Source: an uncultured Acidobacteriota bacterium (GTDB lineage: Bacteria > Acidobacteriota > Thermoanaerobaculia > UBA5066 > Gp7-AA6). Taken from it: a DNA stretch of 64,000 nt. Position numbers and translations under genes: made by a program. The notes beneath the pieces were generated by a model. That model was given only the letters and a program-made list of their open reading frames with translations, was not told the origin of the DNA and searched no databases. Shown here piece after piece: positions 5,580 through 35,767 of the stretch. The first letter of the stretch is position 1, and each line of letters opens with the position of its first letter. The DNA lies in the NCBI GenBank assembly GCA_963847075.1, contig CAWJYL010000002.1, positions 1,276,725 to 1,340,724 on the forward strand, read 5' to 3'.

Positions 5580-6440
5580 TTACTGGCTTTTGGGCTTTGT
5601 GTCAACCGCGGCGGTGGTCGGAGGCGGGTTTTCAGCCTTTTTCTGGTCGGTTTTCGACCGCGCCTTCTTTGCGTACTCGCTCTGCGGAAACTCCTCGATG
5701 ACCTTGCCAAAGTACCGCCGAGCCTCCTCGGTGCGGCCCAGGCGACCGAGCGCAACTGCCTGGTAATAGTAGAGCTTGTCCTTCCGGTCGTAGTCCGGAA
5801 AGCGCGCCTCGACGTCGGTGAATCGGGTGAGGGCGGCTACGGTCGAGCCCTTGCGCAGATAAAAATAGCCCACACCGAAGTCGTGCTCGGCGAGCAGGTC
5901 CGTGAGCCGCCGGACCCGCTCCCGCGCCGCACCCGCGTACCCCGAGTCGGGGAACTCCCGAATGAGGACGCGGTACTGCTCGATCGCCTCTTTGGTGGCC
6001 GTCTGGTCGCGGTCGGGCTTCTCGTGCTCCTTGTCCGAGCAAAGAGCGAACTGGTAACGGGCGTAGTCGCGGTTTGCGGCGCCCGGGTAGCGGTTCAGAT
6101 AGTCGCGATAGCGGTATCGAGCCTCCGTGTATGCCGCCGGAGTTGCCTCCTTGACGAAGGAGTCCGCCACGAGCAGCAAGGACTCACGGCCAATCGTCTC
6201 GTTCGGGTACGTCTCGAAGAGGTAGTTGAGGTACTTGCGCCCCTCGGCGTACTTCTTCTTGGCGATGAGCGCCTTGCCCTTTTCGAAGAGGACTTCCTTC
6301 GGCTCGGTCAAGAGCTCCTGCGTGATCTTGTCGGGCTTCTTGGCTCCCGATCCGGCGCAGGCGGCCGACAACGCCAGGGCAAGGCCGATCGCCGCCGCCC
6401 CGGCGGCCACGAGGAGTCCGGGCCCGCGCACTTGCGTCAT
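5580..6440 (-). CDS. bamD: outer membrane protein assembly factor BamD (TPR lipoprotein)
   Basis: Start MTQVRGPGLLVAAG... with lipobox LALSAAC. TPR-like repeats (YLNYLFETYPNE, YARYQFALC, DSGYAGAAR). Its ATG overlaps the rpe stop (ATGA). The 5' part of ORF 5580..6812 is read-through. Confidence 0.8.
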   Translation of the reverse strand: MTQVRGPGLLVAAGAAAIGLALALSAACAGSGAKKPDKITQELLTEPKEVLFEKGKALIAKKKYAEGRKYLNYLFETYPNETIGRESLLLVADSFVKEATPAAYTEARYRYRDYLNRYPGAANRDYARYQFALCSDKEHEKPDRDQTATKEAIEQYRVLIREFPDSGYAGAARERVRRLTDLLAEHDFGVGYFYLRKGSTVAALTRFTDVEARFPDYDRKDKLYYYQAVALGRLGRTEEARRYFGKVIEEFPQSEYAKKARSKTDQKKAENPPPTTAAVDTKPKSQ

Positions 6441-7108
6441 ACCCGCACGGAACCCATGGCCGCCTGACGCAGCCTCGCGATTGCTTCGGCGGGATTCGGA
6501 TCCCCGTAGACCGCGGTGCCCGCGACGAGAATCTCCGCGCCAGCCATGGCGAGCGCGGCCGCGTTGCCGCCGTTCACGCCGCCATCGATCTCGATCGCGA
6601 GGTGCGCGCCGGCGCCGCGCGCGGCCGCGGCGAGACCCTGCACCTTCTCGATCGACTGCCGGAGAAACGGCTGACCTCCCCACCCCGGGTTGACCGACAT
6701 CACGACGGCATAGTCGAGGTCCGGCCACGCCGCCGCGAGCGCCGCCGCCGGTGTCGCCGGGTTCAACGCAGCCCCGGCCTTCGCACCGCCGTGCCGTATG
6801 GCGGCCAGACACTTCTGGAGGTGCCGCGTGGCTTCGACGTGCACCGAGACCCAGTCCGCCCCCGCGTCGAGATACTCCGAGAGGGAGCGCTCCGGATTCT
6901 CGATCATCAGGTGGACGTCGAGCGGAAGACGTGTCGCCTTGCGCAGTGCCCGGACCACCGGCGGCCCGAGAGTGAGGTTCGGCACGAAGTGGCCGTCCAT
7001 CACGTCCACGTGAACGAGATCCGCCCCGCCCGCCTCCGCCATGGCCAGCGCATCGGCAAGCCGCGTGAAATCCGCCGACAGCAGGGACGGCGCGATCGCA
7101 ACTCTCAT
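6437..7108 (-). CDS. rpe: ribulose-phosphate 3-epimerase
   Basis: 223 aa: MRVAIAPSLLSADFTRLADALAMAEAGGADLVHVDVMDGHFVPNLTLG...VMSVNPGWGGQ. The rest of ORF 6437..7864 is read-through. Confidence 0.9.
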   Translation of the reverse strand: MRVAIAPSLLSADFTRLADALAMAEAGGADLVHVDVMDGHFVPNLTLGPPVVRALRKATRLPLDVHLMIENPERSLSEYLDAGADWVSVHVEATRHLQKCLAAIRHGGAKAGAALNPATPAAALAAAWPDLDYAVVMSVNPGWGGQPFLRQSIEKVQGLAAAARGAGAHLAIEIDGGVNGGNAAALAMAGAEILVAGTAVYGDPNPAEAIARLRQAAMGSVRV

Positions 7109-7848
7109 GAGCGCGGCGAGGCCGCGGCCTCCGGCGACCGCGACACCGTCAGCGAGACGACCTCGCGGCTCGAAAGCGGGTAGCCGGCCGGAGGAAACTG
7201 CTTCAGTACCGTGTTCGGACGAACCCCGTCGTATGCTTCGAACCGCGCGCTGCCGACCCGGAAGCCGAACTTCTCCAGGCGATCCTTCACGGTCTGCGCA
7301 TCCTTGCCGACGAAGTCGGGCATCACGATGCGGGACTCCGGTGCGCCCCGGCTGGTCAGCACACGCACGGCCTCGCCTCGCGCCGCCGGCGTGTCCGCCT
7401 CGGGGTCCTGCGCACTGATGCCCGCGGGCGCCGCCGGATCGCGGTACCACGAGGCCGGCCCGAGCTCGAGGGACTCGCGGGCGAGCTTCAGGGCCGCGGC
7501 CCGCGGAGCCAGGCCCGCGAGATCCGGAACCCGCAGTTCGCGCGGCCCGAGCGAAAGGACTACGCGAACGGTCTGCGACGGTTTGGCGAGAGATCCCCCC
7601 TCCGGCTGCTGCAAGAGGACGCGCCCGCTCGGGACCCGCTCGTCGTGGCGCGCGCGGCTGGCCTGCTCCTCCAGCCGCAGCCCGACCGCGTAGGCGGCGC
7701 GGAACGCCTCGGCCTGCGTCTTTCCCGTCAGGTCCGGCACCGTGATCGATCGGCCCATGATCGCGTTGCGAAACCCGAACCACACGGCGCCCACGAAAAC
7801 GCCGGCAAGCAGCGTGCCGTAAAGAAGGCGAAACACGAGCCGCGCCAC
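7105..7848 (-). CDS. PASTA-domain membrane protein (N-terminal TM helix plus three PASTA repeats; no kinase or PBP domain)
   Basis: TM helix LLYGTLLAGVFVGAVWFGF. Three PASTA-like repeats: ITVPDLTGKTQAEAFRAAYAVGLRL, VPDLAGLAPRAAALKLARESLEL, VMPDFVGKDAQTVKDRLEKFGFRV. Its stop overlaps the rpe start. Confidence 0.65.
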   Translation of the reverse strand: MARLVFRLLYGTLLAGVFVGAVWFGFRNAIMGRSITVPDLTGKTQAEAFRAAYAVGLRLEEQASRARHDERVPSGRVLLQQPEGGSLAKPSQTVRVVLSLGPRELRVPDLAGLAPRAAALKLARESLELGPASWYRDPAAPAGISAQDPEADTPAARGEAVRVLTSRGAPESRIVMPDFVGKDAQTVKDRLEKFGFRVGSARFEAYDGVRPNTVLKQFPPAGYPLSSREVVSLTVSRSPEAAASPRS

Positions 7849-7935
7849 AGCCGGAAGTTAACACGGGATGGTACCCTCAGTCCGGTGGAACAACGTGGCC
7901 GGCTGGCCCGTTTTCCCGGCAAAAGGAGCACCCCG

Positions 7936-8925
7936 GTGCCGTCGAGAACAGACAGCGACTCCGAGCAGCCCGGCTGGTTCGCCGATGGCCGCTTCCGCAA
8001 GGCGGACCTGCACTGCCACTCCGTCTACTCGACGTTCAAGTACTTTCGGATCGCCAACACCCGCGATTCGTACAACCGGCCCGAGGAGGTCTACCGCCTC
8101 GCCAAGGAACGGGGCATGGACTTCGTGACGATCACCGACCACGATTCGATCGACGGCTGCCTCGCCCTGCTCGACCGCGATTGCGATCTCGAGGACTTCT
8201 TCATCTCGGAGGAGGTCGAGACCTGGTTCCCGGACACGCGGCAGCGAATCCACGTCAACGTCTTCGACATCGACGAGAAGCAGCACGCGGAAATTCAGCG
8301 GCGCCGGCACAACATCTACGACCTCCATGACTACCTGAAGGCCGAGAACATCATCGCCTCGGCGAACCACATGTTTCAGAATTACCGGATGCGCAACTCG
8401 CCCCGGCACTACTTCGAGGAAATGCTCCGGATGTTCGACATTTTCGAGGTCAAGAACGGCGCGATGACCTCGCACCACAACCGGCTCGTCGAGGACCTGA
8501 TGGCGGTCGTGCGGGAAAAGCGCGGCCACGTTTCGCTCGTCGCGGGGTCCGACGCGCACACGCTGGCGCCGCTCGCACGCGTGTACACCGTGGCCGAGGC
8601 ACAGACCGTTCGGGAGTTCCTCGAGCGGGTCCGCACCGGCGCTTGCTTCGTCTGGGGCGTGGAGATGGGGTTCCGGATGCTGCTGTCGGACGTCTACCGG
8701 ATGGTCTTCAAGTACTACGGAAGCGTGCTCGACTGGAAGAATCCCGAGTTTTCGGGGGCCGAAAAGGCGCGGCACCTGGCTCTGGCGGCCGTGGGCGCGC
8801 CGTTCTCGGCGGCGGGAGTGCCGCTGGCGGTCACGACGCTGAACTATCTGAAGCAGATCTTCGTCACGAAGACGGTGGGCCAGGAACTGCTGGAGCACTG
8901 GGACGAGAAGCGCGACCCTTCCTGA
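7936..8925 (+). CDS. PHP-domain (polymerase/histidinol-phosphatase-like) metal-dependent phosphoesterase
   Basis: GTG start preceded by AAGGAG. PHP motifs DLHCHSVYS and VTITDHDSIDG. The 3' end overlaps the convergent YfhO-like gene by about 60 nt. Confidence 0.7.
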   Translation: MPSRTDSDSEQPGWFADGRFRKADLHCHSVYSTFKYFRIANTRDSYNRPEEVYRLAKERGMDFVTITDHDSIDGCLALLDRDCDLEDFFISEEVETWFPDTRQRIHVNVFDIDEKQHAEIQRRRHNIYDLHDYLKAENIIASANHMFQNYRMRNSPRHYFEEMLRMFDIFEVKNGAMTSHHNRLVEDLMAVVREKRGHVSLVAGSDAHTLAPLARVYTVAEAQTVREFLERVRTGACFVWGVEMGFRMLLSDVYRMVFKYYGSVLDWKNPEFSGAEKARHLALAAVGAPFSAAGVPLAVTTLNYLKQIFVTKTVGQELLEHWDEKRDPS

Positions 8926-11278
8926 GTCCGGTCGGCAGCGTGAGCGCCAGGATGGCCAGCAGCGTCGCCAGGCTGATCCACGCCCCATACACGAACCCGT
9001 CCGGCAGGTAGCGCAGGACCGCCTCGTGGCGGCCCGGGGGCACCTCGAACGCGAGGAACGCGTGGTTGAAGCCGAAGAGCGGAGCCCGCCGGCCGTCCAG
9101 TGTCAGTCTCCAGCCCTTCCAGGCCGGAATCGACGTGCCCACGAGCGCCGCGCCCCGCGCGTCGATCGAGAGCGCCATCCGCTCGGAGGCGTACGCAGCG
9201 ACCCTCACGTCCGCCTCGCCGTTGTCCCGCCAACCGAGGCGCCCGGGCCGAACGGCGCCCGCCACGCCGTCGTTGGAGAAATCCCAGATGCGAGCCAGGA
9301 CCATCATTTGGACCGCCGGATTGTCCGTCCACACCAGGTGGCGCGGCACGAACGCCCGGGGTAGCGCTCGGGGGTTCTCGTACAGCCGCGAGCCATTCTG
9401 CTCCGCGCGGACGGTCCAACCGGCCGGAGGCGGAAACCCCGGCGGAGCGACGGCGTACCGCACGTTGAGAAACGCGAGAAACGGCGAGTTCGGGTCGTCC
9501 ACGCGGTTGAAGTAGCTCGCCTGCTGCACGCACCAGAGCCCGAAGGTCTCCGCCAGCGGCTGGAACACGAGAGCGTCGTAACCCCGCACATCTTCGACGC
9601 CGTACATCGCCGCGACGTTCGGCGTGAACGTCCACTTGAGGCCGGTCATCCGCACGGGCTCGCCACGGGGGATCGGATCGAGCAGACGCATCGGTGGATA
9701 GAAGGCGCGAGCCGGGTAGGTCGGATAGACCTCGGCCTCCTCGATCCGCCGCTGGGCGAGTACGAGCACGCAGAGCGCGGCGATCGCACCGGCGCCCAGG
9801 CGCGAGCGGCGCGCGAGCGCGAGGACGAGCGTGAGCCCGAGCAGGAGCGGGAGAACCTGCGCCAGCAGCCGGGCCTGGAGGTACGAGGGCTCCATCCCGA
9901 TCGCGCGCAGCTTCGGGCCGCGCGCAGCGCCGACGAGCAGCGCGGCGAGCGTCGTCGCGACGACACCCGCCGCGAAGGCCGGAACCCCCTTTCCGCGCGC
10001 CAGGCTCTCGGCTCCGAGCACCGCCAGCGCCACCAATCCGAACAACGCGAGGAAGATGAAGTAGTCGTTCACGGAGATGTCGAAGAGCGGAATGGACGCG
10101 ATCAGAGACGCGACTCCGACCAGGCGAGCGTGGACTGCAACGCCGAACAGCACGAACGCCAGGAAGATCCACTTGCGCCGGCACCGGGCGGCCAGCCCGG
10201 CGGCGGCGAGTGCCGTCACGAGCGAGCCCGCGTAGGCGGCCGGCAGGATGAGGCGGCCCACGACCTGGCTTCGGCCGAGGGCGCCGTACGCGTAAGGAAC
10301 CAGGCTCGGCACGAGCCGGCGCAGGCTCTCGATGGGCGCTTCCGTACGCTTCGCCTTCGCCAGGAAGCTCACGCGCAGGGTGTGCTGCCACGATTGGGGA
10401 ACGACTTCGAGAAACGGCAGCAGGACCACCGCCGTCAGCCCGAGCGCGAGGGCCCCGGCGGTGAGCGACAGCAGAACGGGCTTCCACCTCCGGCCGGGCC
10501 GGGCGCGCGAGAGCTCAAAGAGAAAAAAGAGGCCGGCCGCCGCGACCGCAAAGAGCAGCGTCTCGGGATGGCCCGCGACGACCATCGCCACGAGCGCGCA
10601 GACCGTCAGGCCAACCGCGCGCCGGTCCGCGTCGTCGACCAGCCGCAGCAGGCCGAGCAGCAGCAGCGGAAACGGCGCAACGCTCGAGACGATCGGATAC
10701 CCCGCGTAGAAGAAGAGGAAGTCGGAAAATGCCCAGGCGCAGGCGCCGAGCAACGCGGCCGCCTCCCCTGCAGCGGTTCCCCGAAAAAACAGATAGGCGC
10801 AGAGCAGGGCCACGAAGAAGCGCAGCGAGACGTCGAACGTCCAGGCCTGCGGCGGCGCAAGGAGCATCCCGAGCCACACCCCCGGCTGCAGGACGGCTGG
10901 CTGCGCGACCGCGGCCAGGGGCGCCCCCCCGAGCACGTGCCGATTCCAGAGCGGGAAACGGCCGGAGGCAATCGCCTCGCGGACGGCATGGCGCCAGGGC
11001 AGCATCTGGGACGCCACGTCCACGAGCAGGGGGTTGGCAGTCGTCTCGATCCCCGCTTCCGCCCGCAGGGCACGGAGCGGCTCGGCCTGGTAGGCGATGT
11101 CGAGCGGCGCGAAGACCCCGCCCGTCAGCATGGCCTTCCCGGTGAAGAGCAGCGGGGCCGCGGCGAGCACGAGCGCGGCGCGTACGCGGACCGGCAGGAC
11201 CAGGCGGTGGGCGGCGAGCAACAGCCCGCCGACCGTCCCGCCATACACCACGAGGGACCCGAGCACGACCGGCAGCAT
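8864..11278 (-). CDS. YfhO-like polytopic membrane protein, paralog 1 (putative GT-C-fold lipid-linked glycosyltransferase)
   Basis: 804 aa. About 12-14 predicted TM helices in the N-terminal 450 aa, then a ~330-aa soluble domain. Shares motifs with its two neighbours: LPWRHAVREAIASGRFPLWN and ENPRALPRAFVP. Confidence 0.55.
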   Translation of the reverse strand: MLPVVLGSLVVYGGTVGGLLLAAHRLVLPVRVRAALVLAAAPLLFTGKAMLTGGVFAPLDIAYQAEPLRALRAEAGIETTANPLLVDVASQMLPWRHAVREAIASGRFPLWNRHVLGGAPLAAVAQPAVLQPGVWLGMLLAPPQAWTFDVSLRFFVALLCAYLFFRGTAAGEAAALLGACAWAFSDFLFFYAGYPIVSSVAPFPLLLLGLLRLVDDADRRAVGLTVCALVAMVVAGHPETLLFAVAAAGLFFLFELSRARPGRRWKPVLLSLTAGALALGLTAVVLLPFLEVVPQSWQHTLRVSFLAKAKRTEAPIESLRRLVPSLVPYAYGALGRSQVVGRLILPAAYAGSLVTALAAAGLAARCRRKWIFLAFVLFGVAVHARLVGVASLIASIPLFDISVNDYFIFLALFGLVALAVLGAESLARGKGVPAFAAGVVATTLAALLVGAARGPKLRAIGMEPSYLQARLLAQVLPLLLGLTLVLALARRSRLGAGAIAALCVLVLAQRRIEEAEVYPTYPARAFYPPMRLLDPIPRGEPVRMTGLKWTFTPNVAAMYGVEDVRGYDALVFQPLAETFGLWCVQQASYFNRVDDPNSPFLAFLNVRYAVAPPGFPPPAGWTVRAEQNGSRLYENPRALPRAFVPRHLVWTDNPAVQMMVLARIWDFSNDGVAGAVRPGRLGWRDNGEADVRVAAYASERMALSIDARGAALVGTSIPAWKGWRLTLDGRRAPLFGFNHAFLAFEVPPGRHEAVLRYLPDGFVYGAWISLATLLAILALTLPTGLRKGRASRPSAPAVPGPPSS

Positions 11279-11290
11279 GGCTGCCGATTA

Positions 11291-13639
11291 TCACGTCCTC
11301 CGGGAAACCACGAGCCACGCGGCCGCGAGGAGCAGGGTCATCGCACTGGCCACGGCGCCATACCGGAACCCGTCGGGCTCGTAGGCGATCGAGAGCCGGT
11401 GCCGACCGGCCGGCACGCGAAAGGACAGGAAAGCGAGGTTGTAGGGCACCGGTGCGGCACGGCGCCCGTCGACCCGGGCCTTCCATCCCGGCCATCCGAC
11501 CATGGACGTTGCGACGAGCGTGTCCCGGGCGGCATCCACACCGAGCTCCATGGCCTGGGGCGCATACGACGCGATCGTCACGCGCGCATCCCCGTTGGCG
11601 ACCCACGTCCCCGGGGATTCCCCCGTCTCCACCAGGCCCCGCTCGGCAAAATCGTCGATCGACTTGAGCAGCTCAATGCCGCGCGCCAGGTCCGGCTCCG
11701 CCCGGACCAGTCGCGGCACGAAGGCCCGTGGCAGCGCGCGCGGGTTCTCGAGCACGCGCACCCCGCTGCCCTCGGCGAGCACCGGCCAGCCATCGGGAAC
11801 CCCGGCGCCCGCCGGCGCGATCACCCACCGGACGTTCAGGAACGACAGGAACGGCCGCGTGGGGTCGTCGACCCGGTTGAACCAGATGCCCTGGGACTCG
11901 CACCAAAGCGGCCACGTCAGGAGGTATCGGCGCAACGTCATCGACGAATAGCCCCGAACGTCCTCGAGCCCGTAGAGCGCCGCCACATTCGGGATGAACG
12001 CGTAGTCGAGCCCGACGACCCGGTACGGCTGACCGCGGGGCACGGCGTCGAGAACAGGCAGGGGCGGAAAGAACGCGCTGGCGGGCGCGGTCGGATAAAC
12101 ACCTCCTGCTTCCGCGATCCGGGACGCGGCGAGCACGACGACGAGAAGCGGGGCTCCTGCGATGGCCCGGTGCCGCCGGGACAGAGCACCCATGGCCACG
12201 AGGGCGACCGCGACGGGCGCGATCTGCCCCGCGAGGCTCGGACGCCAATCGGCCGACGCGAGCCCCCGCCCTTCGTTTTCCGACCGTTCACGCACGGAGA
12301 CTGCCGCCAAGAGGGCGATCGTAAGCAACGCTCCAACGATGAACGCGGGACGACCCTCGCCGTCCCTCAGCCGTTCCGCGCCGATGGCGGCGAGCATCGC
12401 GACGCCAAAGACTGCGAGAAATACGAAATAGTCGAGCACGGCGATGTCGAGAAGGGGCACGGCTCCGGCCAGATCGGCGACCCCGCGCAGCCGCACCCAG
12501 AGGGCGATGCCCGCGGCGGCGACCAGCAGGAGACCCCAGCGCTGGCGACGCCGCGAGAACAACCCGACCAGAGCGAGTGGCAGCAGAATCGAGCCGGCGT
12601 AACACGCCGGAGTCTCGGCCCACCGATCGCGCCCGCCTGGACCAAGACGGGCGGCGGGCACGAGGTTGGGCCAGAGACGCCTCAGGCTCTCCGACGGCGT
12701 AACGGATTTCTGGAGGTGCGAGTACCACGAAACGCGCATCACATGCTCGGCGGTGCCGGGCAGAACCTCGGCCATCGTCCACAGCTGCGTCGCCGTCAGC
12801 CCGAGTGCGATCGCTCCGGCAATCAGGGAAAGACGAATCGGACGCGACCTCCGTCCTCGCTCCGCCCCGGCGAGGAGGAACAGGAAGTAGAGGCCCGCGC
12901 CGACGACCGCGAAGAGCAGCGTCTCGGGGTGCCCCGCTGTCACGATCAGGACGAGCGCGGCGACGGTCAAGCCCGCCGCCGGGGAATTGGCGTCGCGGAC
13001 GAGCCGTGAAAGGCCGAGGGCCAGAAGCGGAAACGGCGCCACGCTCGCGCCGACCGAATAGCCGAGCCAGAAGACGAGAAAGTCCGAAAACGCCCAACCG
13101 ACGGCGCCCACGAGCGCCGCTGCATCGCCGCAGCCGAGATCGCGGCAGAAGAGGTACGCCGCGACCAGGGCGAGCAGCAGGCGCAGCGACATCTGAAACG
13201 TCCACGCCTGCGCCAGCGGCAGGAGAAACCCGATCCATGTGCCGGGATGCAACGGCGCGGCCTGCTGCACGGCGAGCAGCGGCTCCCCCGCCATCACCGC
13301 GGGGTTCCAAAGCGGGAGTCGCCCCTGCCGGACCGCGGCGCGGAGGGCTTGCTGCCACGGGATCATCGAGTACACGACGTCGGACAGAAGCGGCGTTCGC
13401 GGTAGCCCGAGCTGTGCCGCCTGGGGAAGCGACGAGAACGGTTCGGACCGGTACACGATGTCGATCGGCGCGTAGACGCCGCCCGTGAGCAAGGCCTTCC
13501 CCGTGAAGAGCAGGGGTGCCAGGGCGAGCAGGACGGCCACCCGGCGGCGTATCGGAAGGACGAAGCGATTGGCCAGCCATAGGAGGAGGGCCGCGGTCGC
13601 TCCGTAGACGACGCACGAGCGAACGACGAGAAGGAGCAT
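11291..13639 (-). CDS. YfhO-like polytopic membrane protein, paralog 2
   Basis: 782 aa with the same architecture (IPWQQALRAAVRQGRLPLWN, ENPRALPRAFVP). 12 nt from paralog 1. Confidence 0.55.
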   Translation of the reverse strand: MLLLVVRSCVVYGATAALLLWLANRFVLPIRRRVAVLLALAPLLFTGKALLTGGVYAPIDIVYRSEPFSSLPQAAQLGLPRTPLLSDVVYSMIPWQQALRAAVRQGRLPLWNPAVMAGEPLLAVQQAAPLHPGTWIGFLLPLAQAWTFQMSLRLLLALVAAYLFCRDLGCGDAAALVGAVGWAFSDFLVFWLGYSVGASVAPFPLLALGLSRLVRDANSPAAGLTVAALVLIVTAGHPETLLFAVVGAGLYFLFLLAGAERGRRSRPIRLSLIAGAIALGLTATQLWTMAEVLPGTAEHVMRVSWYSHLQKSVTPSESLRRLWPNLVPAARLGPGGRDRWAETPACYAGSILLPLALVGLFSRRRQRWGLLLVAAAGIALWVRLRGVADLAGAVPLLDIAVLDYFVFLAVFGVAMLAAIGAERLRDGEGRPAFIVGALLTIALLAAVSVRERSENEGRGLASADWRPSLAGQIAPVAVALVAMGALSRRHRAIAGAPLLVVVLAASRIAEAGGVYPTAPASAFFPPLPVLDAVPRGQPYRVVGLDYAFIPNVAALYGLEDVRGYSSMTLRRYLLTWPLWCESQGIWFNRVDDPTRPFLSFLNVRWVIAPAGAGVPDGWPVLAEGSGVRVLENPRALPRAFVPRLVRAEPDLARGIELLKSIDDFAERGLVETGESPGTWVANGDARVTIASYAPQAMELGVDAARDTLVATSMVGWPGWKARVDGRRAAPVPYNLAFLSFRVPAGRHRLSIAYEPDGFRYGAVASAMTLLLAAAWLVVSRRT

Positions 13640-13648
13640 TCCCTGTTT

Positions 13649-16009
13649 CTACGGGACTCGCGGCCGCCGCATCCGGGCGATCGCGATGCAGCCCGCGGCG
13701 CCGGCGAGAAAAGCGAGGAGGCCGAGTGTCGACGAGCGCGGCCGATACGCGAGCCGGACGCGGTGCTCGCCCGGCGGGAGCCAGAGGCCGACGAACGCGT
13801 GGTTGACGGTCTCGAGCGCCAGCTCGCCCCCCTCGATCCGGGCGACCCAGCCCGGCCAATCCGGAATCGAGGTCGCCACGAACGCGCGGCGCGCCACCGA
13901 AGCGTCGACGAGGATGTCCGGCCCCGCTTCCCGCACCGAGAGCGCGGCTTCGCCGTTGGACTCCTCGCGGGGTCCTTCGCCCGAAAGCCAGGCGACCTCG
14001 GAGAAGTCGTCGGCGCGGCCCATCGCCCGAAGGCGCTCGCCCGGATCGGCCTCGCGAAGCAAACGGCGCGGAAGAAACGCCCTCGGCAGCGCGCGCGGGT
14101 TCGTAAAGATCGTCATCTCGGGGCCACGCGCCTGCTCGACCCATCCCGCGGGCACCGGATCGCCGGGCGAGCCGATCGCGTAGCGGACGTTCAAGAAGGA
14201 GAGGAACGGGCGCGTCAGGTCCGTCACGCGGTTGAAGGACGCCGGCTGGGACCGCGACCAGAGCGGATACGTGTCGGCGAATCGATCGAGGACGAGCGAT
14301 TCGTATCCGCGCACGTCCTCGAGCCGGTAGAGCGTGGCCTGGTTCGGGCGCAGAACATCCCCCGCCGCCACCACGCGGGAGGGATCGCTGCCGCGCCGGA
14401 GCGCCCCGAGTGTCGGCAGGGACGGCGCGAAGGTCGAGACGGGAAGCGTCGGGTAGGTGCCCTCCATCTCCAGGAAGCGCTGCCCGACGAGCAGAACCAG
14501 GACTCCCACGGCCATGCGCGAGCCCTTCATCCGTCCGGCGAAGCAGACGAGGGCGAGGGTGAGGACCGGCGCCGTTTCGGCGGCGAAGCTGTTCCTCACG
14601 AACGACGGCGGGAGGTCTCGCTCGGAAAAGACCGGCAGCGCGAAAAAGCAAGCCGCACAAAGGGCGGCGACGCACGCCGCGCTCGCGCGCCCAAGCTTCT
14701 TCACGGCCCCGGGCCCTTCGAGCTCCTGCGCGCCGAGCGCCGCGAGGCCCGCCAGCCCGAGGCCCGCGAGAAACACCAGCCGGTAGTTGAGCGCCAGCGC
14801 AAATCCCGGAAGCCGTCCGGTCAGATCCATGACGCCCGGGAAGCTCGCGCCGTAAGCCAGGCCGGCCAGAACGAACGCGAAGAAGAGCGATCTGCCGCGC
14901 GGTGCCGTGCGACGCGCGAACGCCAGGAGCGCAAGAGGAAACAGGATCGCGCCCGCGTAGCCAAGCGGCATTCCGGAACCGTCCCTCCCGTTGCCCGCGA
15001 CGGAGCTGCGCCCGAAGATGCCGTGGGCGAACGGGAGCAGGTCCGGCAGCAGACGCCCGGCGGCATCGGCCAGAGGCACGCTCTGGCTGGTCGGGCCCGC
15101 GGCCAGAGCCCCGCGGCGCGCGCGGTACTCGGCGGAGCGCGGAATCGCTTCGAGCAACGGGAAGAGCTGCGGCCCGGCGAGCAGCATCGCGAGCCCTCCG
15201 GAACAGAGTGCCAGCCCGATCGCCCGAGGCACGATACGCCGCGGCGCAGCCGCCAGCTCCCAGGCGAAATAGACCCCGCCCGCCGCGACCACATGGAGAA
15301 ACGACTCCGGGTGCCCGCCGCAGAACGAGAGCCACAGCGCGGCAGCCGTCAGCGCGATGGCGTCGCGGCCAGGCGCACGGGCGAGGCGCCGCAGCCCCAG
15401 AAGAAGCAGGGGCAGCGTCGCCGTTGAGGGTCCCACGCTCCATCCATCCCAGAAGACGACGTAGGTCGAGAAGCCCCAGCCGACGGCGCCCACGAGCGCC
15501 GCGCGCTCCGAGAGCTCGAAGTCGCGGAAAAAGAGGAAGGCCGTCAGAAGCGCGAGAAAGAGCGTGAACGTGCAGGAGAAGGTCCAGGAGAGCGGCACGG
15601 GCAGCCAGAGGCCGAGCCACGTCGAAGGGTGCAGGATCCCGGCCTGCGCCGTCCCGAGGAGCGGGTTCCCCGCGAGCACGAAGCGGTTCCAGAGAGGCAG
15701 CCTGCCGCTGGCTGCCGCCTCGCGAACGGCCGCGCGCCACGGCAGATTCGCGAAGGCAAGATCCGAGAGGATCGGGTTTCGCACGGCCCCGACGCCGGCC
15801 TCGGCGGCCACGCTCTTCCAGGGGTCCGCTGCGAAGGGAAGGTCCGACGGGCCGTAGAGTCGTCCGAGCAGGACCGCCTTTCCCGTCAGGACGAGCGGCA
15901 GGAACGCCAGGAGAATCCCCGTACGCGCCGAAAGCGACGCGGTGACGCGCCCCGCGAGCCAGAGAGCCAGCGATGCCGACGCCGCGTACGTCAGCCACAA
16001 CCCGAGCAA
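13649..16009 (-). CDS. YfhO-like polytopic membrane protein, paralog 3
   Basis: 786 aa with the same architecture (LPWRAAVREAAASGRLPLWN, TNPRALPRAFLP). 9 nt from paralog 2. Confidence 0.55.
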   Translation of the reverse strand: MLGLWLTYAASASLALWLAGRVTASLSARTGILLAFLPLVLTGKAVLLGRLYGPSDLPFAADPWKSVAAEAGVGAVRNPILSDLAFANLPWRAAVREAAASGRLPLWNRFVLAGNPLLGTAQAGILHPSTWLGLWLPVPLSWTFSCTFTLFLALLTAFLFFRDFELSERAALVGAVGWGFSTYVVFWDGWSVGPSTATLPLLLLGLRRLARAPGRDAIALTAAALWLSFCGGHPESFLHVVAAGGVYFAWELAAAPRRIVPRAIGLALCSGGLAMLLAGPQLFPLLEAIPRSAEYRARRGALAAGPTSQSVPLADAAGRLLPDLLPFAHGIFGRSSVAGNGRDGSGMPLGYAGAILFPLALLAFARRTAPRGRSLFFAFVLAGLAYGASFPGVMDLTGRLPGFALALNYRLVFLAGLGLAGLAALGAQELEGPGAVKKLGRASAACVAALCAACFFALPVFSERDLPPSFVRNSFAAETAPVLTLALVCFAGRMKGSRMAVGVLVLLVGQRFLEMEGTYPTLPVSTFAPSLPTLGALRRGSDPSRVVAAGDVLRPNQATLYRLEDVRGYESLVLDRFADTYPLWSRSQPASFNRVTDLTRPFLSFLNVRYAIGSPGDPVPAGWVEQARGPEMTIFTNPRALPRAFLPRRLLREADPGERLRAMGRADDFSEVAWLSGEGPREESNGEAALSVREAGPDILVDASVARRAFVATSIPDWPGWVARIEGGELALETVNHAFVGLWLPPGEHRVRLAYRPRSSTLGLLAFLAGAAGCIAIARMRRPRVP

Positions 16010-16172
16010 TTCGATTCTCAGGAGCGCATCCCCCGGCCGATTCTAGCCGGGCTGCTGTCTCGATGGGCGGAAACGCCCTGTCATCCTGGGCGCCGGCGAC
16101 GAAGGACGCCGCACTCGACCGCCACTGCCGGTATCGAGCCCGGCGCCCTCCGCGACGCTCAGGACGACAACG

Positions 16173-17537
16173 TCAGAACGGCCACCACCCCGTCGGCAGG
16201 TTCTTGGCGAGGTCGTTGTACAGCACGACCGCCAGCAACGCCAGGATCATCACGAAGCCGACCTGCAGGATGCGTTCCTTGACGCGCAGCGAGAAATCCC
16301 TGCGCGCGGCGCTCTCGACGGCGAGCAGAAACAGGTGCCCTCCGTCGAGCACCGGGATCGGAAGCAGGTTGAAGATGCCGAGCTGCAGGGAGATCGCGGC
16401 CATCAGGGCGACCAGAGGCACCGCGCCCGTGCGGGCCGCCTCGCCCGAGAACTTGGCGATGTCGAGCGGGCCGGACATCGATTTCATGCTGGCGCGGCCC
16501 CGGAAGAGGCGGCCGAGAATGGAGATTGTCATGCGGAAATCGGTCTCGACCCGACGCCAGCCCTCGACGACGGCCTGCCGGAGCGGGAAGCGCTCGAGCA
16601 CCTCCGGGAGGTCGCCCCCGACCTGGACGCCTACCTTCCACGAGCCGTCCGGATCGCGCCGCGGCGTCACCATCGCGGTTGCGGTCCTCCCGTCTCGCAG
16701 ATATTCGATCGGGAAGGGGCCCGGCGCGGCGCCGGTGACGGCGGAGACGAAGTTCGTGAAGACCTGATCCGGCGCTCCCGTGATCGGCTTACCCGCCACC
16801 TTCAGGACCACGTCGCCCGACTTCAACCCCGCCTTCTCGGCCGGCGAGCCGGCGACCACCGCTCCGATGCGGGCGCGGACGTCCGTCCCAAAGTCGGGCA
16901 GAAGGCCCACGTACCCGAGGTCGTATTTCGTGTTGGGTCGAGGGACGACCTGCAGAAACACCCCGTTGCCCGCGCGATCGACCTCGACGTCGAGCTTCTC
17001 GCGGGCGTTCATGCCGAAGAGGAAGAGCACGTCGCGCCAGCGCGGTGTCTGCGTGCCGCCGATGGAGATGACCCGGTCGCCGGGCTGGAAGCCCGCCGCA
17101 GCGCCCGGCGAGCCAGCCTCCACCACGCGAATGACCGGCCGCTCGAGCTCGTAGGCGGGGACCTTCACGCCGATTGCGAAGACGGCCGAATGGAGAACGA
17201 TCGCGAGAACGAGATTCGTCGCTGGCCCGGCGAGGAGGATGAGCGCCCGCTGCCAGCGCTTTCCGACGGGCGGCGCCTCTTGCGACGTACCCTCCGTGAC
17301 CGTCGACTCGTCCGGCCCGAGCCCGATCACGCGCACGTACCCGCCAAGCGGGATCGCGGACACGCGATAGTCGGTGCCTCGCACCTTGCGCCCGAAGAGA
17401 CGTTTTCCGAAGCCGACCGAGAAGACCTCGACCGGAAAGCCGAACCATTTCGCCACGGCGAAGTGGCCGAACTCGTGGGCCACGACGAGCACGGAGAGGA
17501 CGACGATGAGAGCGAGCGTGTTTCCGAGGATCGTCAA
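16173..17537 (-). CDS. rseP: RIP zinc metalloprotease RseP (site-2 protease with PDZ domains)
   Basis: HEFGH zinc motif at the N-terminus. PDZ segments (GSPGAAAGFQPGDRV, GSPAEKAGLKSGDVV). C-terminal LDGGH motif. Confidence 0.9.
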   Translation of the reverse strand: MTILGNTLALIVVLSVLVVAHEFGHFAVAKWFGFPVEVFSVGFGKRLFGRKVRGTDYRVSAIPLGGYVRVIGLGPDESTVTEGTSQEAPPVGKRWQRALILLAGPATNLVLAIVLHSAVFAIGVKVPAYELERPVIRVVEAGSPGAAAGFQPGDRVISIGGTQTPRWRDVLFLFGMNAREKLDVEVDRAGNGVFLQVVPRPNTKYDLGYVGLLPDFGTDVRARIGAVVAGSPAEKAGLKSGDVVLKVAGKPITGAPDQVFTNFVSAVTGAAPGPFPIEYLRDGRTATAMVTPRRDPDGSWKVGVQVGGDLPEVLERFPLRQAVVEGWRRVETDFRMTISILGRLFRGRASMKSMSGPLDIAKFSGEAARTGAVPLVALMAAISLQLGIFNLLPIPVLDGGHLFLLAVESAARRDFSLRVKERILQVGFVMILALLAVVLYNDLAKNLPTGWWPF

Positions 17538-17558
17538 AAAAGGCTCCTTCGCGGGCAG

Positions 17559-18740
17559 TTACCGGGCAGCGACGGCTGCGGCACGGCGCCGGACCAGTCC
17601 GTCGGCCGCTACGCGTGCGGCCTGATCGAGGCCCTGGGCTTCCTCCAGGCTCGCGGGGGCGGTCTTTGGACCAGCGGCATCCAGAGTTCCGGAAACCACG
17701 CTAACGATGTCGGGAAAGGAAATCTTCCCTTCCAGGAACGCCGCCACCGCAACCTCGTTGGCCGCATTCAGGACGGCGGGCATGCCTCCACCGGAGGCCA
17801 GGGCCGCCCGGGCGAGCCCGAGCGCCGGGTAACGCCTCGGATCGAGCTCGAAAAAATCGAGGCGCGAGAGGGCGACGAGATCGAGCCGGCCAAAGTCGTT
17901 CGGCAGGCGCTCGGGGAAGCTGAGCGCATACACGATCGGGAATTTCATGTCGTTCTTCGCCAGCTGCGCGAGCAACGAGCCGTCCACGAACTCGACGAAG
18001 GAGTGGATGAGCGACTGCGGATGAATGACGACGTCGACGCGCTCTCCCGGGACGCCGAACAGGAAGTGCGCCTCGATGACCTCGAGTCCCTTGTTCATCA
18101 TCGTCGCCGAATCAATCGTGATCTTCGGTCCCATCTTCCAGGTCGGATGGGCCAGCGCGTCCTCGACGGTGATCGCGTCGAACGTGTCGAGGCGCCGCTC
18201 GCGAAACGGGCCCCCCGAGGCCGTGAGAACGAGGCGGCGCACTTCGCCGGGCTGCCCCCCGCGCAGGGCCTGGTGAATGGCGCTGTGCTCGGAGTCGACG
18301 GGCACGATCTCCGCGCCGCTCTTCCTCGCCTCGGCCAGGATCAGCTCCCCCGCGACGACGAGCGTCTCCTTGTTGGCCAGCGCCAGCCGCTTGCCGGCCC
18401 GGATGGCCGCGTGCGCCGAGCGCAGACCGTGAGCCCCGACGAGACCCCCGACCACCGTGTCCGCCTCGGGATGACAGGCGGCTTCGTCGAGCCCTTCCAT
18501 CCCGGAGACGATCCGGCACGCCATGCCGGACGGCAGCAACCGCTCGAGCCGCGACACATCCTCCGACCTCTCGATCGCGATGAGCTTCGGCCGGAAGCGG
18601 GCGGCCTGCTCCGCGAGTTTCTCGATCGACCGGCCCGCCGCGAGCGCGACGACCCGGAAGCGATCGGGCAAGCCGGCCACGACGTCGAGCGACGAGCGCC
18701 CGATTGAGCCCGTCGAGCCAAGGATCGAGAGAGATCTCAT
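17559..18740 (-). CDS. dxr: 1-deoxy-D-xylulose 5-phosphate reductoisomerase
   Basis: MRSLSILGSTGSIGRSSLDVV..., LANKETLV, GPKITIDSATMMNKGLEVIEAHFLFG. Confidence 0.95.
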   Translation of the reverse strand: MRSLSILGSTGSIGRSSLDVVAGLPDRFRVVALAAGRSIEKLAEQAARFRPKLIAIERSEDVSRLERLLPSGMACRIVSGMEGLDEAACHPEADTVVGGLVGAHGLRSAHAAIRAGKRLALANKETLVVAGELILAEARKSGAEIVPVDSEHSAIHQALRGGQPGEVRRLVLTASGGPFRERRLDTFDAITVEDALAHPTWKMGPKITIDSATMMNKGLEVIEAHFLFGVPGERVDVVIHPQSLIHSFVEFVDGSLLAQLAKNDMKFPIVYALSFPERLPNDFGRLDLVALSRLDFFELDPRRYPALGLARAALASGGGMPAVLNAANEVAVAAFLEGKISFPDIVSVVSGTLDAAGPKTAPASLEEAQGLDQAARVAADGLVRRRAAAVAAR

Positions 18741-18803
18741 GTGCGACTGCTCATTATATTGGGGGGATGCGGTATGCGGGATACGGGATGCGGGATCGTG
18801 AGG

Positions 18804-19601
18804 CTACCTCCAGGCCAGGAAGGCTGCCATCACCGGGCCGGCGAAGAGGAGCGAGTCGATCCGGTCGTAGAAACCGCCGTGGCCCGGCAGGAAGGTCCCC
18901 GAGTCCTTCACTGCGCCGCCCCGCTTCCACAACGACTCGACGAGGTCGCCGAGCTGGCCGGCGCTCGAAGCGAGAGCGCCCAGCAGAGCGCCGGTCGGTG
19001 CGCCGAGCTCGGGGAGCAGCCACCAGGTTCCGGCGATCCCGCCGAAGGCCGCCGCACCCATGAGCCCCGCGACCGAGCCCTCCCAGGATTTCTTGGGAGA
19101 GACCACGGGAGCGAGCCGATGCCGGCCGAACCGGCGCCCGAAGTAGTAGGCGCACGAGTCGCACACCCACACGAGCAGGAGAAGGAAGAGGACGGCTCGG
19201 GCCGAGTAGTGGCGCAGGAAGCACATCGCCGCAGCCGGAAGGGCGACGATGAGAACTCCGAAGATCGTCGCGCTCGCCCCCGCAAGGGAGACCGCGGGCG
19301 CCACGCGCGCAAAGAGAGGCGCCAGGGCCGAGAGCAACGCGCCGACCAGCAATATCGCCAGCCAGCGGCCTGGCCGCTCCCGCGCCAGGATCTCGACAAG
19401 CAGTCCGGAGGGGGTCTGAAAACGGATCGGCCCCCAGTACACGGCCGCGTTTCCGAGAACGATGCCACCGAGGGCGATGCCGACCATCTTCGCCACGGGA
19501 AGGCCCGACTTCTCCGCGATGCGGTAGAACTCCCAGAGCGCTCCCAGCGCCACGAACGCGACGAGCACGTTGAACGCAATCGGCGGCGCCAGGAACAGCA
19601 C
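18804..19601 (-). CDS. cdsA: phosphatidate cytidylyltransferase CdsA
   Basis: CdsA signature KKSWEGSVAGL...GDLVESLWKRGGAVKDSGTFLPGHGGFYDRIDS. End given is the first canonical start (GTG). A conserved N-terminal helix is encoded upstream of it (see finding), so the true start may be near 19655. Confidence 0.85.
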   Translation of the reverse strand: MLFLAPPIAFNVLVAFVALGALWEFYRIAEKSGLPVAKMVGIALGGIVLGNAAVYWGPIRFQTPSGLLVEILARERPGRWLAILLVGALLSALAPLFARVAPAVSLAGASATIFGVLIVALPAAAMCFLRHYSARAVLFLLLLVWVCDSCAYYFGRRFGRHRLAPVVSPKKSWEGSVAGLMGAAAFGGIAGTWWLLPELGAPTGALLGALASSAGQLGDLVESLWKRGGAVKDSGTFLPGHGGFYDRIDSLLFAGPVMAAFLAWR

Positions 19602-19686
19602 CGCGAGAACGATGGGGATCGCGACCGCGGCCGCGAGCTCGCGCTTCAGGGTCTGGAGCCCTCGGGCTGAAACCGGGTCCCGGCCA

Positions 19687-20499: not shown

Positions 20500-21275
20500 C
20501 CGCCAAGTGTAGCGCGCCCGTGCTCCGGCCCGTAGGACACCCGAACGAGCGTCAGGCCCTGCGCCGGCGCCTTGCTCGAGAGGAGCGTCCGATCGCCCGT
20601 CTCAAGCAGCCCGGCCAGGCGCTCCGCCGGGACACGGCCGCGAGAAATATCGGCAAGGACGCCGCTGATCGACCGCACCATGCCCCGCAGGAATCCGTCG
20701 CCGCGGAAGAGTGCGGAGAGCTCCGCACCGCTCTCCCCGATGGTGATCGCGTGCAGGGTCCGGACGGTGGACTCACCGGTCCGGGGACCGACCGCGAAGA
20801 CCCGGAAGTCGCGCGTGCCGGGCACGAGCCGGGCGGCTTCCCGCATGCGCCCGGCCTCCGCGCGCGGCGACATCGGAGCGACGAACGGCGCGTCGCGCGG
20901 CGGGACGACCGACGCTCGACTCCAGCGATACAGATACTCCTTCCAGAGTGCGTCGCGGCGGGCGTGAAAGTCCGGCGGAGCCTCCTCCACGTCCAGCAGG
21001 CGCACATCGTCGGGCAGCGCATCGTTCACCGCGTCGCGGACGGCGCGCGGCTCGCGACGACCCGGCAGGTCGAAATGAACGACCTGGCCTTCGGCGTGCA
21101 CCCCCGTATCGGTGCGGCTCGCGCCCTCGACGCGGACGGCCTCGCGCACCAATCGCCGCAGCGACTCCTCGATCACCGCCTGGACCGTGCGCGGGGCGTT
21201 GCTCTGCAGCTGCCAGCCGTGGAAGCCGGTGCCGATGTACGCGACCGTGGCGCGATAGCGCATGGGCGGACTCAT
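20496..21275 (-). CDS. truA: tRNA pseudouridine(38-40) synthase TruA
   Basis: [20 protein letters not shown]...[16 protein letters not shown]. Start at the ATG (MSPPMRYR). Stop overlaps the uppS start. The upstream part of ORF 20496..21698 is read-through. Confidence 0.85.
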
Positions 21276-21411
21276 GCGGATCGAAAGCGACCCGGACGAG
21301 TCACTCCAAACGCCTCGAGGCACCCATCGCCCGCGAAGTCTACGCCGTCGACCTCCCCTTCGAAGCCGGGCATGGCCGCAGGGGAGCCTCTGCCGCGGTA
21401 GGCTTGGCAGC

Positions 21412-35754: not shown

Positions 35755-35767
35755 GCGGGCGAGGATC

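Follow-up and report, generated by a model that had tools for sequence, protein, structure and literature searches.

A conserved tandem array of three diverged YfhO-family GT-C proteins in a Thermoanaerobaculia bacterium

The window analyzed here, a 64-kb stretch of DNA (64,000 nucleotides) from a Thermoanaerobaculia (Acidobacteriota) bacterium, contains three consecutive minus-strand genes, which we call Y3, Y2, and Y1 in the order in which they are read (cf. Table 1). Their coordinates, strand, and lengths proved to be exactly those of a preliminary description of this DNA, which had listed three genes of 804, 782, and 786 aa lying 9–12 nt apart. The exact sequences of the three proteins are already deposited in public collections, and the spacers of 9 nt (Y3-Y2) and 12 nt (Y2-Y1) recur unchanged in length at the related locus L012. 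Two giant open reading frames across the array, 12288..15998 and 10130..13009, had been described as spurious antisense frames. They are indeed ruled out as genes by their non-coding codon statistics (GC3 of 0.54 and 0.74 versus 0.84–0.88 in the real frames), and their arginine content is 16–23%; however, only 10130..13009 is antisense, whereas 12288..15998 lies on the same strand in another frame. The array directly follows uppS-cdsA-dxr-rseP, gene identities that were borne out by Pfam (Prenyltransf for uppS, CTP_transf_1 for cdsA, DXP_reductoisom for dxr, and Peptidase_M50 with PDZ for rseP), and truA comes after uppS in this upstream block.

Table 1 Features of the YfhO-family array and its surroundings (positions are those of the window)
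Feature	Position	Strand	Remarks
Y3, upstream YfhO-family GT-C paralog	13649..16009	-	786 aa, TTG start
Y2, middle YfhO-family GT-C paralog	11291..13639	-	782 aa
Y1, downstream YfhO-family GT-C paralog	8864..11278	-	804 aa
Spacer, Y3 stop to Y2 start	13640..13648	-	9 nt, AAACAGGGA, weakly SD-like, read from sequence
Spacer, Y2 stop to Y1 start	11279..11290	-	12 nt, read from sequence
Y1 first periplasmic loop (EL1), predicted	10856..11122	-	residues 53-141; D60, D87, and LPW...R...GRxPLWN helix
Y1 GHPE motif	10562..10573	-	residues 236-239; predicted periplasmic turn between two transmembrane helices
Y1 periplasmic beta-rich domain, predicted	9002..9736	-	residues 515-759 (~245 aa)
Y1 C-terminal transmembrane anchor, predicted	8921..9001	-	residues 760-786; model helix, then basic disordered cytoplasmic tail
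Upstream genes	16173..20499	-	rseP, dxr, cdsA, uppS
rseP	16173-17537	-	
dxr	17559-18740	-	
cdsA	18804-19601	-	
uppS	19687-20499	-	
Intergenic region, rseP stop to Y3 start	16010..16172	-	163 nt
Downstream block	5580..8925	.	PHP, PASTA, rpe, bamD (Pfam)
Convergent PHP-domain gene	7645-8925	+	ORF; overlaps Y1 3' end by 62 nt
PASTA protein	7105-7848	-	
rpe	6437-about 7108	-	
bamD	5580-about 6440	-	~2 kb downstream of array

A Pfam search placed all three proteins in the YfhO family (PF09586), as the preliminary description had proposed: the scores were 71.5 bits for Y1, 45.2 for Y2, and 56.2 for Y3 against a gathering threshold of 28.5 bits for the whole-protein score, with two matched stretches per protein. 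Precomputed PF09586 matches cover nearly all homologues, and NCBI names the close ones 'YfhO family protein [Thermoanaerobaculia bacterium]'. Automated annotation already names the homologues correctly; Y1-Y3 are new but ordinary members of a known family, and the array reveals no new kind of system. The only NCBIfam models that matched Y1-Y3 were those of the characterized streptococcal proteins PgfM1 and PgfM2. Since these matches were partial (the C-terminal 60–75 residues) and far under the cut-offs (15–44 bits versus 1400–1500), Y1-Y3 are, as judged by sequence, distant YfhO-family members and not equivalogs of PgfM1, PgfM2, or any characterized enzyme.

The motifs common to the paralogs were largely as first described. 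LPW/IPW..A.R.A...GR(L/F)PLWN is found at residues 93–112 in Y1, Y2, and Y3, and NPRALPRAF is invariant across the three, although the leading glutamate of the proposed ENPRALPRAF is replaced by threonine in Y3. Furthermore, D60, D87, R100, W111, N112, GHPE, E291, and R302 are shared by the three paralogs and retained by no fewer than 49 of 50 relatives. Within the first loop, D87, P94, R100, P109, and W111 are invariant among the 50 aligned family members, whereas position 60 is aspartate in 49 and glutamate in one; GHPE occurs in all 50. Conserved acidic residues in the first extracytoplasmic loop (a modified DXD motif) are a hallmark of GT-C_A enzymes, and D60 and D87, which lie in the predicted loop 53-141 of Y1, occur in all paralogs. 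By analogy with the GT-C paradigm, D60 and D87 of Y1 are candidate catalytic acidic residues, and GHPE might bind a metal or phosphate.

As a crude hydropathy scan gave overlapping segments, the helices of the AF2 model, with about 15 predicted transmembrane helices per protein, were used in its place. The soluble domain of Y1 sits between helix 496-514 and the terminal helix; the latter coincides with a hydropathy peak at 763-781, and the tail after it has a pLDDT below 50. Lysine and arginine account for 14 of 52 residues in the short loops of the proposed cytoplasmic side and for 1 of 31 on the opposite side, the latter count omitting a 47-aa functional loop. On the basis of this positive-inside count, EL1, which comes after a transmembrane helix and lies across the membrane from the K/R-rich short loops, and the 245-aa domain were placed in the periplasm. 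The active site is thus predicted to be extracytoplasmic, another GT-C_A hallmark. Hence, the earlier picture of a polytopic N-terminal half with an extracytoplasmic, rather than cytoplasmic, C-terminal domain agrees with the prediction, but the domain comprises about 245 aa instead of the supposed ~330 aa and is followed by a final helix.

The predicted structure was recognized by Foldseek as a GT-C fold, in line with the preliminary description, and its transmembrane core and first periplasmic loop are similar to those of solved GT-C enzymes, as expected of GT-C_A members. Thus, neither of the two findings that would have contradicted that description, a lack of GT-C/YfhO similarity or a C-terminal domain predicted to be cytoplasmic, was made. 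PglB and STT3 were among the best structural matches, and the Emb proteins (PDB 7bve, 7bvc) were also found. For the periplasmic domain, likeness to the soluble region of AftD, a mycobacterial arabinofuranosyltransferase (DUF3367; PDB 6w98, 6wbx), was far above anything else in the structural comparison. This resemblance is structural only, with 10–15% identity in the alignments; a PDB search with the single Y1 sequence or a 50-sequence profile retrieved no chain at E ≤ 10, so that neither membership of AftD/DUF3367 nor any sequence similarity to it was seen even by profile. Because the PDB holds no YfhO-family structure detectable by profile search, the active site has no solved anchor. AftD further differs in that it carries three extra carbohydrate-binding modules, spans the membrane with 16 helices, binds an acyl carrier protein, and uses decaprenyl-P-arabinose as its donor.

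The pairwise identities of the paralogs are 51% (Y1-Y2), 39% (Y1-Y3), and 42% (Y2-Y3), i.e. 39–51% rather than the 35–45% first estimated. The conclusion drawn from that estimate, an old triplication and no recent assembly duplication, stands, since each of the three copies has an orthologous clade of its own and their arrangement is shared with other genomes. Related Thermoanaerobaculia genomes with the order Y3-Y2-Y1 are L003, L009, and L012; the first gene of the array is a Y3 orthologue (60–87% identity) in L003, L005, L008, L009, L011, and L012. The Y2 clade is large and also includes singleton genes in GtrB-type GT2 operons. Divergence among the paralogs is greatest in segment 646-712 of the periplasmic domain (22–35% identity); in EL1 identity is 46–51%.

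Could one or more copies be decaying, non-functional paralogs, or the triplet an assembly artefact? Among the relatives, the Y2-position copy is a 213-aa remnant in L011 and missing in L005, and in L009 the first copy is broken into two ORFs. In the window, however, Y1-Y3 are full-length and keep every conserved motif. Moreover, dN/dS against the L012 orthologues is 0.17–0.22 over the three genes (0.17 for Y3 and 0.22 for Y2), which indicates that all three copies are maintained. An independent assembly, L012, carries the same three genes with the same spacers, and an identity of only 39–51% is not that of an artefactual copy. Identity, orthology, and dN/dS together rule out an assembly duplication or pseudogenes, and we regard this extremely improbable explanation as already largely refuted. 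Given their family assignment and fold, their predicted topology, the conserved residues, the signs of purifying selection, and the shared gene order, Y1-Y3 are probably (with a probability of roughly 0.8) three active, anciently diverged YfhO-family GT-C glycosyltransferases of the inner membrane of this diderm bacterium.

A clue to the donor sugar comes from the relatives of Y2. In L007 and L010, a Y2-type singleton and the first gene of the operon downstream of it share 4 nt. The products of this operon are an epimerase/dehydratase, a hexapeptide acetyltransferase, a DegT aminotransferase, and a GT2 of 312 aa, which over its full length is homologous to GtrB (5ekp, E 7.6e-55) and ArnC (E 4e-40). 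Likewise, DegT and GT2 genes are located downstream of the YfhO gene in L004. That Y2 relatives share operons with enzymes of sugar modification and with a GtrB/ArnC-type GT2 supports an undecaprenyl-phosphate (Und-P)-sugar donor, from which we infer the donor of Y1-Y3. In the 64-kb window itself, tblastn gave no match to the L007 operon proteins (epimerase, acetyltransferase, DegT, GtrB-type GT2), nor to the relatives' radical SAM/SPASM gene, ispG, and unassigned neighbors, and Pfam, applied to essentially all coding-looking ORFs, showed no GtrB/CsbB-type GT2, GtrA flippase, or sugar-nucleotide pathway gene beside the array. The pairing with a GT-A synthase and a GtrA flippase that typifies the family is therefore absent from the window; its GT2 half is present for Y2-type relatives in L004, L007, and L010, while no flippase was recognized in the window or in the relatives' loci. 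Such pairing is typical and not obligatory, as Listeria yfhO (lmo1079) is not beside csbB (lmo2550) (PMC8035078).

We propose that a GtrB/ArnC-type GT2 encoded elsewhere in the genome would put a monosaccharide on undecaprenyl phosphate at the cytoplasmic face, that the lipid-linked sugar would be flipped to the periplasmic face, and that each YfhO paralog would then move it from Und-P to an extracytoplasmic acceptor. The EL1 aspartates might serve as base or metal ligand, GHPE and the conserved arginines (R100, R302) could hold phosphate or metal, and the periplasmic domain may position the acceptor. The three copies may have been subfunctionalized for a different acceptor, position, or donor.

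To our knowledge, a diderm acidobacterium is not expected to make teichoic acids, and the acceptor must therefore differ from that of the Gram-positive YfhO proteins. These comprise YfhO of Bacillus subtilis and Staphylococcus aureus (with CsbB and GtcA) and Listeria Lmo1079, teichoic-acid GlcNAc transferases that share PF09586 with Y1-Y3; for the B. subtilis protein, a 2018 paper notes that biochemical evidence of such transfer was lacking (PMC5836110). [quoted passage not shown] Unlike the single Gram-positive gene, Y1-Y3 are three tandem copies, and the window has neither a GT2 nor a GtrA flippase next to them. ArnT, which acts with ArnB and ArnC on lipid A (aminoarabinose), and the three-component Gtr O-antigen systems of Gram-negative bacteria belong to a different GT-C family, and neither ArnT nor GtrC has a counterpart of the large C-terminal periplasmic domain and the terminal anchor predicted for Y1-Y3.

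As the acceptor class we tentatively favor, with low confidence, an envelope glycan over a protein; the glycan might be LPS, O-polysaccharide, or some other exported polymer. The converse assumption, that the paralogs are three protein O-glycosyltransferases acting on disordered, Ser/Thr-rich stretches of proteins in the periplasm, the inner membrane, or the outer membrane, draws on the streptococcal protein O-glycosyltransferases PgtC2, PgfM1, and PgfM2, which are YfhO-family members. They use Und-P-monosaccharides, such as Und-P-Glc or Und-P-GalNAc, made by a GtrB-type or PgfS-type GT-A (PMC12041528). S. mutans even has two paralogs, PgfM1 and PgfM2, in one operon, comparable with the tandem copies here; moreover, PgfM1 and PgfM2 are the sole NCBIfam matches, and PglB and STT3 rank high among the structural ones. 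Still, the PgfM matches are short and low-scoring, the periplasmic domain is closest to the soluble region of AftD, which acts on glycans, we noticed no gene for a Ser/Thr-rich target beside the array, and nothing here points to protein acceptors, which makes a protein-directed role unlikely.

Stepwise building or branching of a periplasmic glycan, possibly by a hetero-oligomer, would instead liken the array to the mycobacterial Emb/Aft arabinosyltransferases. In Mycobacterium, embC-embA-embB, a tandem set of three diverged GT-C paralogs that differ in acceptor specificity, provides a precedent for such an array. The Emb proteins, however, belong to family GT53, are much larger, build chains, and form a known EmbA-EmbB heterodimer. 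All characterized YfhO members add single decorating sugars and not chain units (PMC8035078), Y1 (804 aa) lacks the three extra carbohydrate-binding modules of AftD (~1,400 aa), and the loss or decay of the middle copy in L005 and L011 speaks against an obligatory three-step or three-subunit machine. Stepwise building or branching thus seems unlikely to us.

The position of the array next to uppS might suggest that it is coupled to, or co-transcribed with, uppS-cdsA-dxr-rseP, so that Und-P supply and Und-P-sugar use would be co-regulated, and that it fills the slot of bamA in other diderms. Both in the window and in its close relative L012, the array comes immediately after rseP and has the same orientation, and simple scans of the window's 163-nt gap revealed neither a terminator-like nor a sigma-70-like site, although over 8500-16400 such scans are uninformative for Acidobacteria (no sigma-70-like sites, and terminator-like sites all inside genes, 10 observed versus 6.0 ± 2.4 expected). 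The neighborhood from uppS through the array to bamD is kept in seven genomes, the same downstream block following the array in L003, L005, L008, L009, L011, and L012. However, in five of the six relatives the first YfhO gene is cut off from rseP (or ispG) by an oppositely oriented gene, namely a radical SAM/SPASM gene in L003, L005, L009, and L011 and a 536-aa gene of no assigned function, besides ispG, in L008. Co-transcription with uppS is therefore not conserved, and direct adjacency is confined to the immediate lineage of the window. In addition, same-family YfhO singletons occur in unrelated neighborhoods, and gene order may be conserved by descent within a single bacterial class, with no functional link behind it. 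The "bamA position" was borrowed from proteobacterial gene order and finds nothing in its support here; bamA was not found by Pfam among essentially all coding-looking ORFs of the window. The suggested uppS link is weak, and we consider the coupling quite improbable.

Work on YfhO-family enzymes has been limited to Firmicutes, in which their targets are teichoic acids or surface proteins (PMC8035078, PMC5836110, PMC12041528), and we found no literature on YfhO in Acidobacteria and no experiment on any diderm YfhO homologue. The family is nevertheless abundant and anciently multiplied in this poorly known class of diderm Acidobacteria. The conserved paralog order, together with the aminosugar/GtrB-type GT2 operons of the relatives, provides a starting point for finding the envelope molecule glycosylated in the periplasm of these soil and sediment bacteria, and the modeled likeness of the YfhO periplasmic domain to the AftD soluble region may help to model the acceptor site of the family. 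A bolder reading, which we hold to be very doubtful, is that Y3-Y2-Y1 form a Thermoanaerobaculia-specific periplasmic pathway in which three specialized enzymes successively decorate or build one envelope polymer, coupled to carrier-lipid supply. If true, this would be the first defined role of YfhO enzymes outside Gram-positive bacteria, and the fixed place of the array beside Und-P/isoprenoid genes would reflect a real coupling. Candidate polymers for such a pathway are the product of a nearby ABC-transporter glycan cluster and a secondary cell-wall polymer anchoring SLH-domain proteins.

The preliminary description of this region had placed three minus-strand genes downstream of uppS-cdsA-dxr-rseP, and ORFs of the positions and lengths that it claimed were found, with the quoted motifs present; the genes are named here Y3, Y2 and Y1, from the first transcribed to the last (see table). 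They are separated by spacers of 9 nt (Y3-Y2) and 12 nt (Y2-Y1). In a window with a G+C content of about 70%, their frames have a GC3 of 0.84-0.88 and a GC2 of about 0.5, as expected for coding sequences at a high genomic G+C content. Two large overlapping ORFs (12288..15998 and 10130..13009) were rejected as spurious because of their GC3 (0.54 and 0.74, respectively) and an arginine content of 16-23%. Both had been called spurious and antisense; codon statistics bear out the former, whereas the latter applies to 10130..13009 only, as 12288..15998 shares the strand of the three genes but uses a different frame. Pairwise protein identities are 51% (Y1-Y2), 39% (Y1-Y3) and 42% (Y2-Y3), so that the range of 35-45% reported earlier fits the last two pairs but is exceeded by the first. 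The exact sequences of the three proteins are already present in public collections, all on one contig. At its 3' end, Y1 meets a convergent PHP-domain gene (7645-8925, plus strand), with which it shares 62 nt of coding sequence (8864-8925), within the disordered basic tail of Y1 (pLDDT below 50); L012, the locus of a close relative, has this overlap too, at 16959-17020. Since its orthologues are 329-351 aa long, the true start of the PHP gene is probably near 7930.

YfhO genes and associated features in the window and in homologous loci of related assemblies (L003-L012)
Feature	Locus	Position (strand)	Remarks
Y3	window	13649-16009 (-)	786-aa ORF
Y2	window	11291-13639 (-)	782-aa ORF
Y1	window	8864-11278 (-)	804-aa ORF
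YfhO array	L012		same three genes, 9- and 12-nt spacers, 62-nt convergent PHP overlap; proteins 85-87% identical
YfhO array	L003		three copies, same order
YfhO array	L009		three copies, same order; first copy broken into two ORFs
YfhO array	L005		Y3 and Y1 types only
YfhO array	L011		Y3 type, 213-aa Y2 remnant, Y1 type
YfhO array	L008		one Y3 type, one Y2-like copy
Radical SAM/SPASM gene	L003	6280-7590 (-)	435-438 aa
Radical SAM/SPASM gene	L005	4520-5836 (-)	435-438 aa
Radical SAM/SPASM gene	L009	6294-7604 (-)	435-438 aa
Radical SAM/SPASM gene	L011	8624-9931 (-)	435-438 aa
YfhO (Y2 type)-to-GT2 operon	L007	10001-16012	
YfhO (Y2 type)-to-GT2 operon	L010	10001-16002	

The proposed YfhO/GT-C identity was confirmed at the level of both sequence and predicted structure. 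The PF09586 (YfhO) scores of 71.5 (Y1), 45.2 (Y2) and 56.2 bits (Y3) all exceed the Pfam gathering score of 28.5, and the only NCBIfam matches were weak, C-terminal ones to PgfM1 and PgfM2, YfhO-family enzymes of streptococci. Homologues are numerous in a collection of 5.8 billion proteins, in which the named ones read 'YfhO family protein [Thermoanaerobaculia bacterium]' or MAG of Acidobacteriota; no relative among PDB chains was detectable by sequence or profile search. An AlphaFold2 model of Y1, computed from a 50-sequence alignment, was confident (pLDDT 92.3, pTM 0.92), and its Foldseek matches in the PDB at E<=1e-3 were exclusively GT-C enzymes, namely AftD, ArnT, EmbC and STT3. The model comprises about 15 transmembrane helices, a long first loop with short interfacial helices (residues 53-141), a soluble, mainly beta domain of 245 aa (515-759), and a last helix (760-786) followed by a basic disordered tail. 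With loop boundaries taken from this model, the short loops on one side contain 14 Lys and Arg in 52 residues and those on the opposite side 1 in 31, a 47-aa functional loop being set aside; following the positive-inside rule, this skew predicts that the first loop and the 245-aa domain are periplasmic. Such a topology agrees with that published for Bacillus subtilis YfhO, in which the last two of 13 transmembrane helices are separated by a 389-aa loop (PMC5836110). A large extracytoplasmic C-terminal domain, as suggested earlier, is thus predicted, though with 245 instead of about 330 aa and with a terminal anchor that had been missed. Residues conserved over 50 family members and the three paralogs include D87 (50/50 family members) and D60 (49 D, 1 E) in the first loop and the invariant GHPE motif (236-239) in a predicted periplasmic turn; R100, W111, N112, E291 and R302 are likewise conserved, as are the soluble-domain motifs EDVRGY, FNRV and NPRALPRAF.

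In a neighbor-joining tree (no bootstrap support values), the sequences formed a Y3 clade, a Y1 clade and a large Y2-type clade, which also takes in all 120 best database matches to Y2 and several singleton genes. These three clades indicate that the duplications are older than the divergence of these genomes, in agreement with the old triplication assumed before. The dN/dS values relative to L012 were 0.17 (Y3), 0.22 (Y2) and 0.18 (Y1), compared with 0.04-0.11 for dxr, rseP and cdsA; all three genes are therefore under purifying selection, yet evolve faster than their housekeeping neighbors. The least conserved stretch between the paralogs is segment 646-712 of the periplasmic domain (22-35% identity), whereas the first loop shows 46-51%, a pattern that we would expect if catalysis were common to the three enzymes and the acceptor, or its positioning, different.

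Six further assemblies from Thermoanaerobaculia or Acidobacteriota share the neighborhood, in the order truA-uppS-cdsA-dxr-rseP, YfhO array, PHP-PASTA-rpe-bamD; in the window, Pfam identified rseP, dxr, cdsA, uppS and truA upstream of the array, and the convergent PHP-domain gene, a PASTA protein, rpe and bamD downstream. The broken first copy of L009 consists of ORFs of 332 and 280 aa, and the 213-aa ORF of L011 (12392-13033), with 39% identity to Y2 residues 350-510, is a decayed middle copy. The PASTA protein (7105-7848, minus strand) has 247 aa and three PASTA repeats, lies 4 nt from rpe, and is kept between the PHP gene and rpe in all related loci with no kinase or PBP domain attached. 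Synteny of the array with uppS-cdsA-dxr-rseP thus holds in the window and six relatives, but co-transcription does not, as opposite-strand genes intervene in five of the six. In four of them, a divergent radical SAM/SPASM gene separates rseP from the first YfhO gene, a Y3 orthologue, and starts 70-80 bp upstream of it; the radical SAM/SPASM gene is absent from the window (tblastn, no match) and from L012. In L008, ispG and an opposite-strand 536-aa gene lie at this position, which leaves a direct rseP-array junction only in the window and L012 among the seven genomes. Since YfhO-family singletons occur in unrelated neighborhoods, a functional link of the array to undecaprenyl phosphate (Und-P) synthesis, beyond common use of the carrier lipid, is plausible but unsupported. 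The 'bamA position' assigned to the array is an analogy with proteobacterial gene order; Pfam scans found no bamA among the coding ORFs scanned in the window, and bamD (5580-about 6440) indicates a diderm with bamA located elsewhere. Upstream of uppS in L008, a gene running off the locus (1-190) is called as a 702-aa product matching GT87/MptA_B, another polyprenyl-phosphate-dependent GT-C family, and PseudoU_synth_1; either truA has been joined by miscalling to a second GT-C gene next to uppS, or the fusion is genuine.

The relatives also provided hints on the donor. In L007 and L010, a Y2-type singleton comes first in an operon and overlaps the following gene by 4 nt. The other products of the operon are an NAD-dependent epimerase/dehydratase, a hexapeptide acetyltransferase, a DegT-type aminotransferase and a GT2 (310-312 aa), with a second, convergent DegT gene immediately downstream of the operon. 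Over its full length, the GT2 is homologous to two polyprenyl-phosphate glycosyltransferases, GtrB (5ekp, E 7.6e-55) and ArnC (E 4e-40); L004 is similar in that DegT and GT2 genes lie downstream of a YfhO gene. The operon resembles the Arn system and, judging from its content, its donor is probably an acetamido-deoxy sugar on Und-P. The YfhO-GT2 pairing follows the scheme of periplasmic glycosylation systems with three components (PMC8035078; PMC11127046). A single genome appears to carry both the uppS-locus array and the singleton operon (homologues P0170 and P0060). No GT2, flippase or sugar-nucleotide gene was found with the array in the 64-kb window by tblastn with the L007 operon proteins and Pfam scans.

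The best-supported reading is that Y1, Y2 and Y3 are three active, periplasm-facing, polyprenyl-phosphate-sugar-dependent YfhO glycosyltransferases of the GT-C type, subfunctionalised after an ancient duplication. What the analysis itself establishes is membership of the family, the fold, the predicted topology, conserved motifs and gene order, purifying selection, and the GT2 pairing in relatives; the identity of the donor, the acceptor and the catalytic roles of D60, D87, GHPE and R302 we infer. The main interpretation of the preliminary description was therefore correct and its observation real, considering PF09586 membership, the GT-C fold, the predicted periplasmic domain and the three clades. 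The proteins are new members of a known family already labelled by automated annotation, not a new kind of system; the modest leads are the triple array conserved in a diderm lineage and the resemblance between YfhO and AftD domains. Characterised YfhO enzymes of Firmicutes use teichoic acids or Ser/Thr-rich protein regions as acceptors (PMC8035078; PMC5836110; PMC12041528), and in a diderm acidobacterium the acceptor must be a different one. Possible candidates are LPS or O-polysaccharide, another exported glycan, and envelope proteins, and we slightly favor a glycan, as the modeled soluble domain is AftD-like.

Elsewhere in the window, a plus-strand cluster at 32396-36520 (UDP-GlcNAc 2-epimerase, GT1/GT4-like glycosyltransferase, ABC-2 permease and ABC ATPase) looks like ABC-transporter-dependent glycan export of the Wzm/Wzt or TagGH type and could be a source of acceptor polymer. 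A 660-aa protein (44950-46932, minus strand) has a beta-propeller of the glucose/sorbosone dehydrogenase type together with a TIG domain and two SLH domains; in an acidobacterial diderm, the latter hint at either a secondary cell-wall polymer that is pyruvylated or an envelope protein tethered to peptidoglycan. Two minus-strand ORFs of 1333 and 1602 aa (36685-40686 and 39870-44678), with CarboxypepD_reg as their only Pfam match, probably encode large secreted or outer-membrane proteins; they overlap by about 800 nt, and at least one start is therefore miscalled. Finally, a heat-shock/envelope-stress cluster (clpB, hsp20 and an HtrA/DegP-type protease with PDZ domains) lies at 25640-30273 on the plus strand, and a CopA-type P-type ATPase gene (21262-23844) is divergent from truA.
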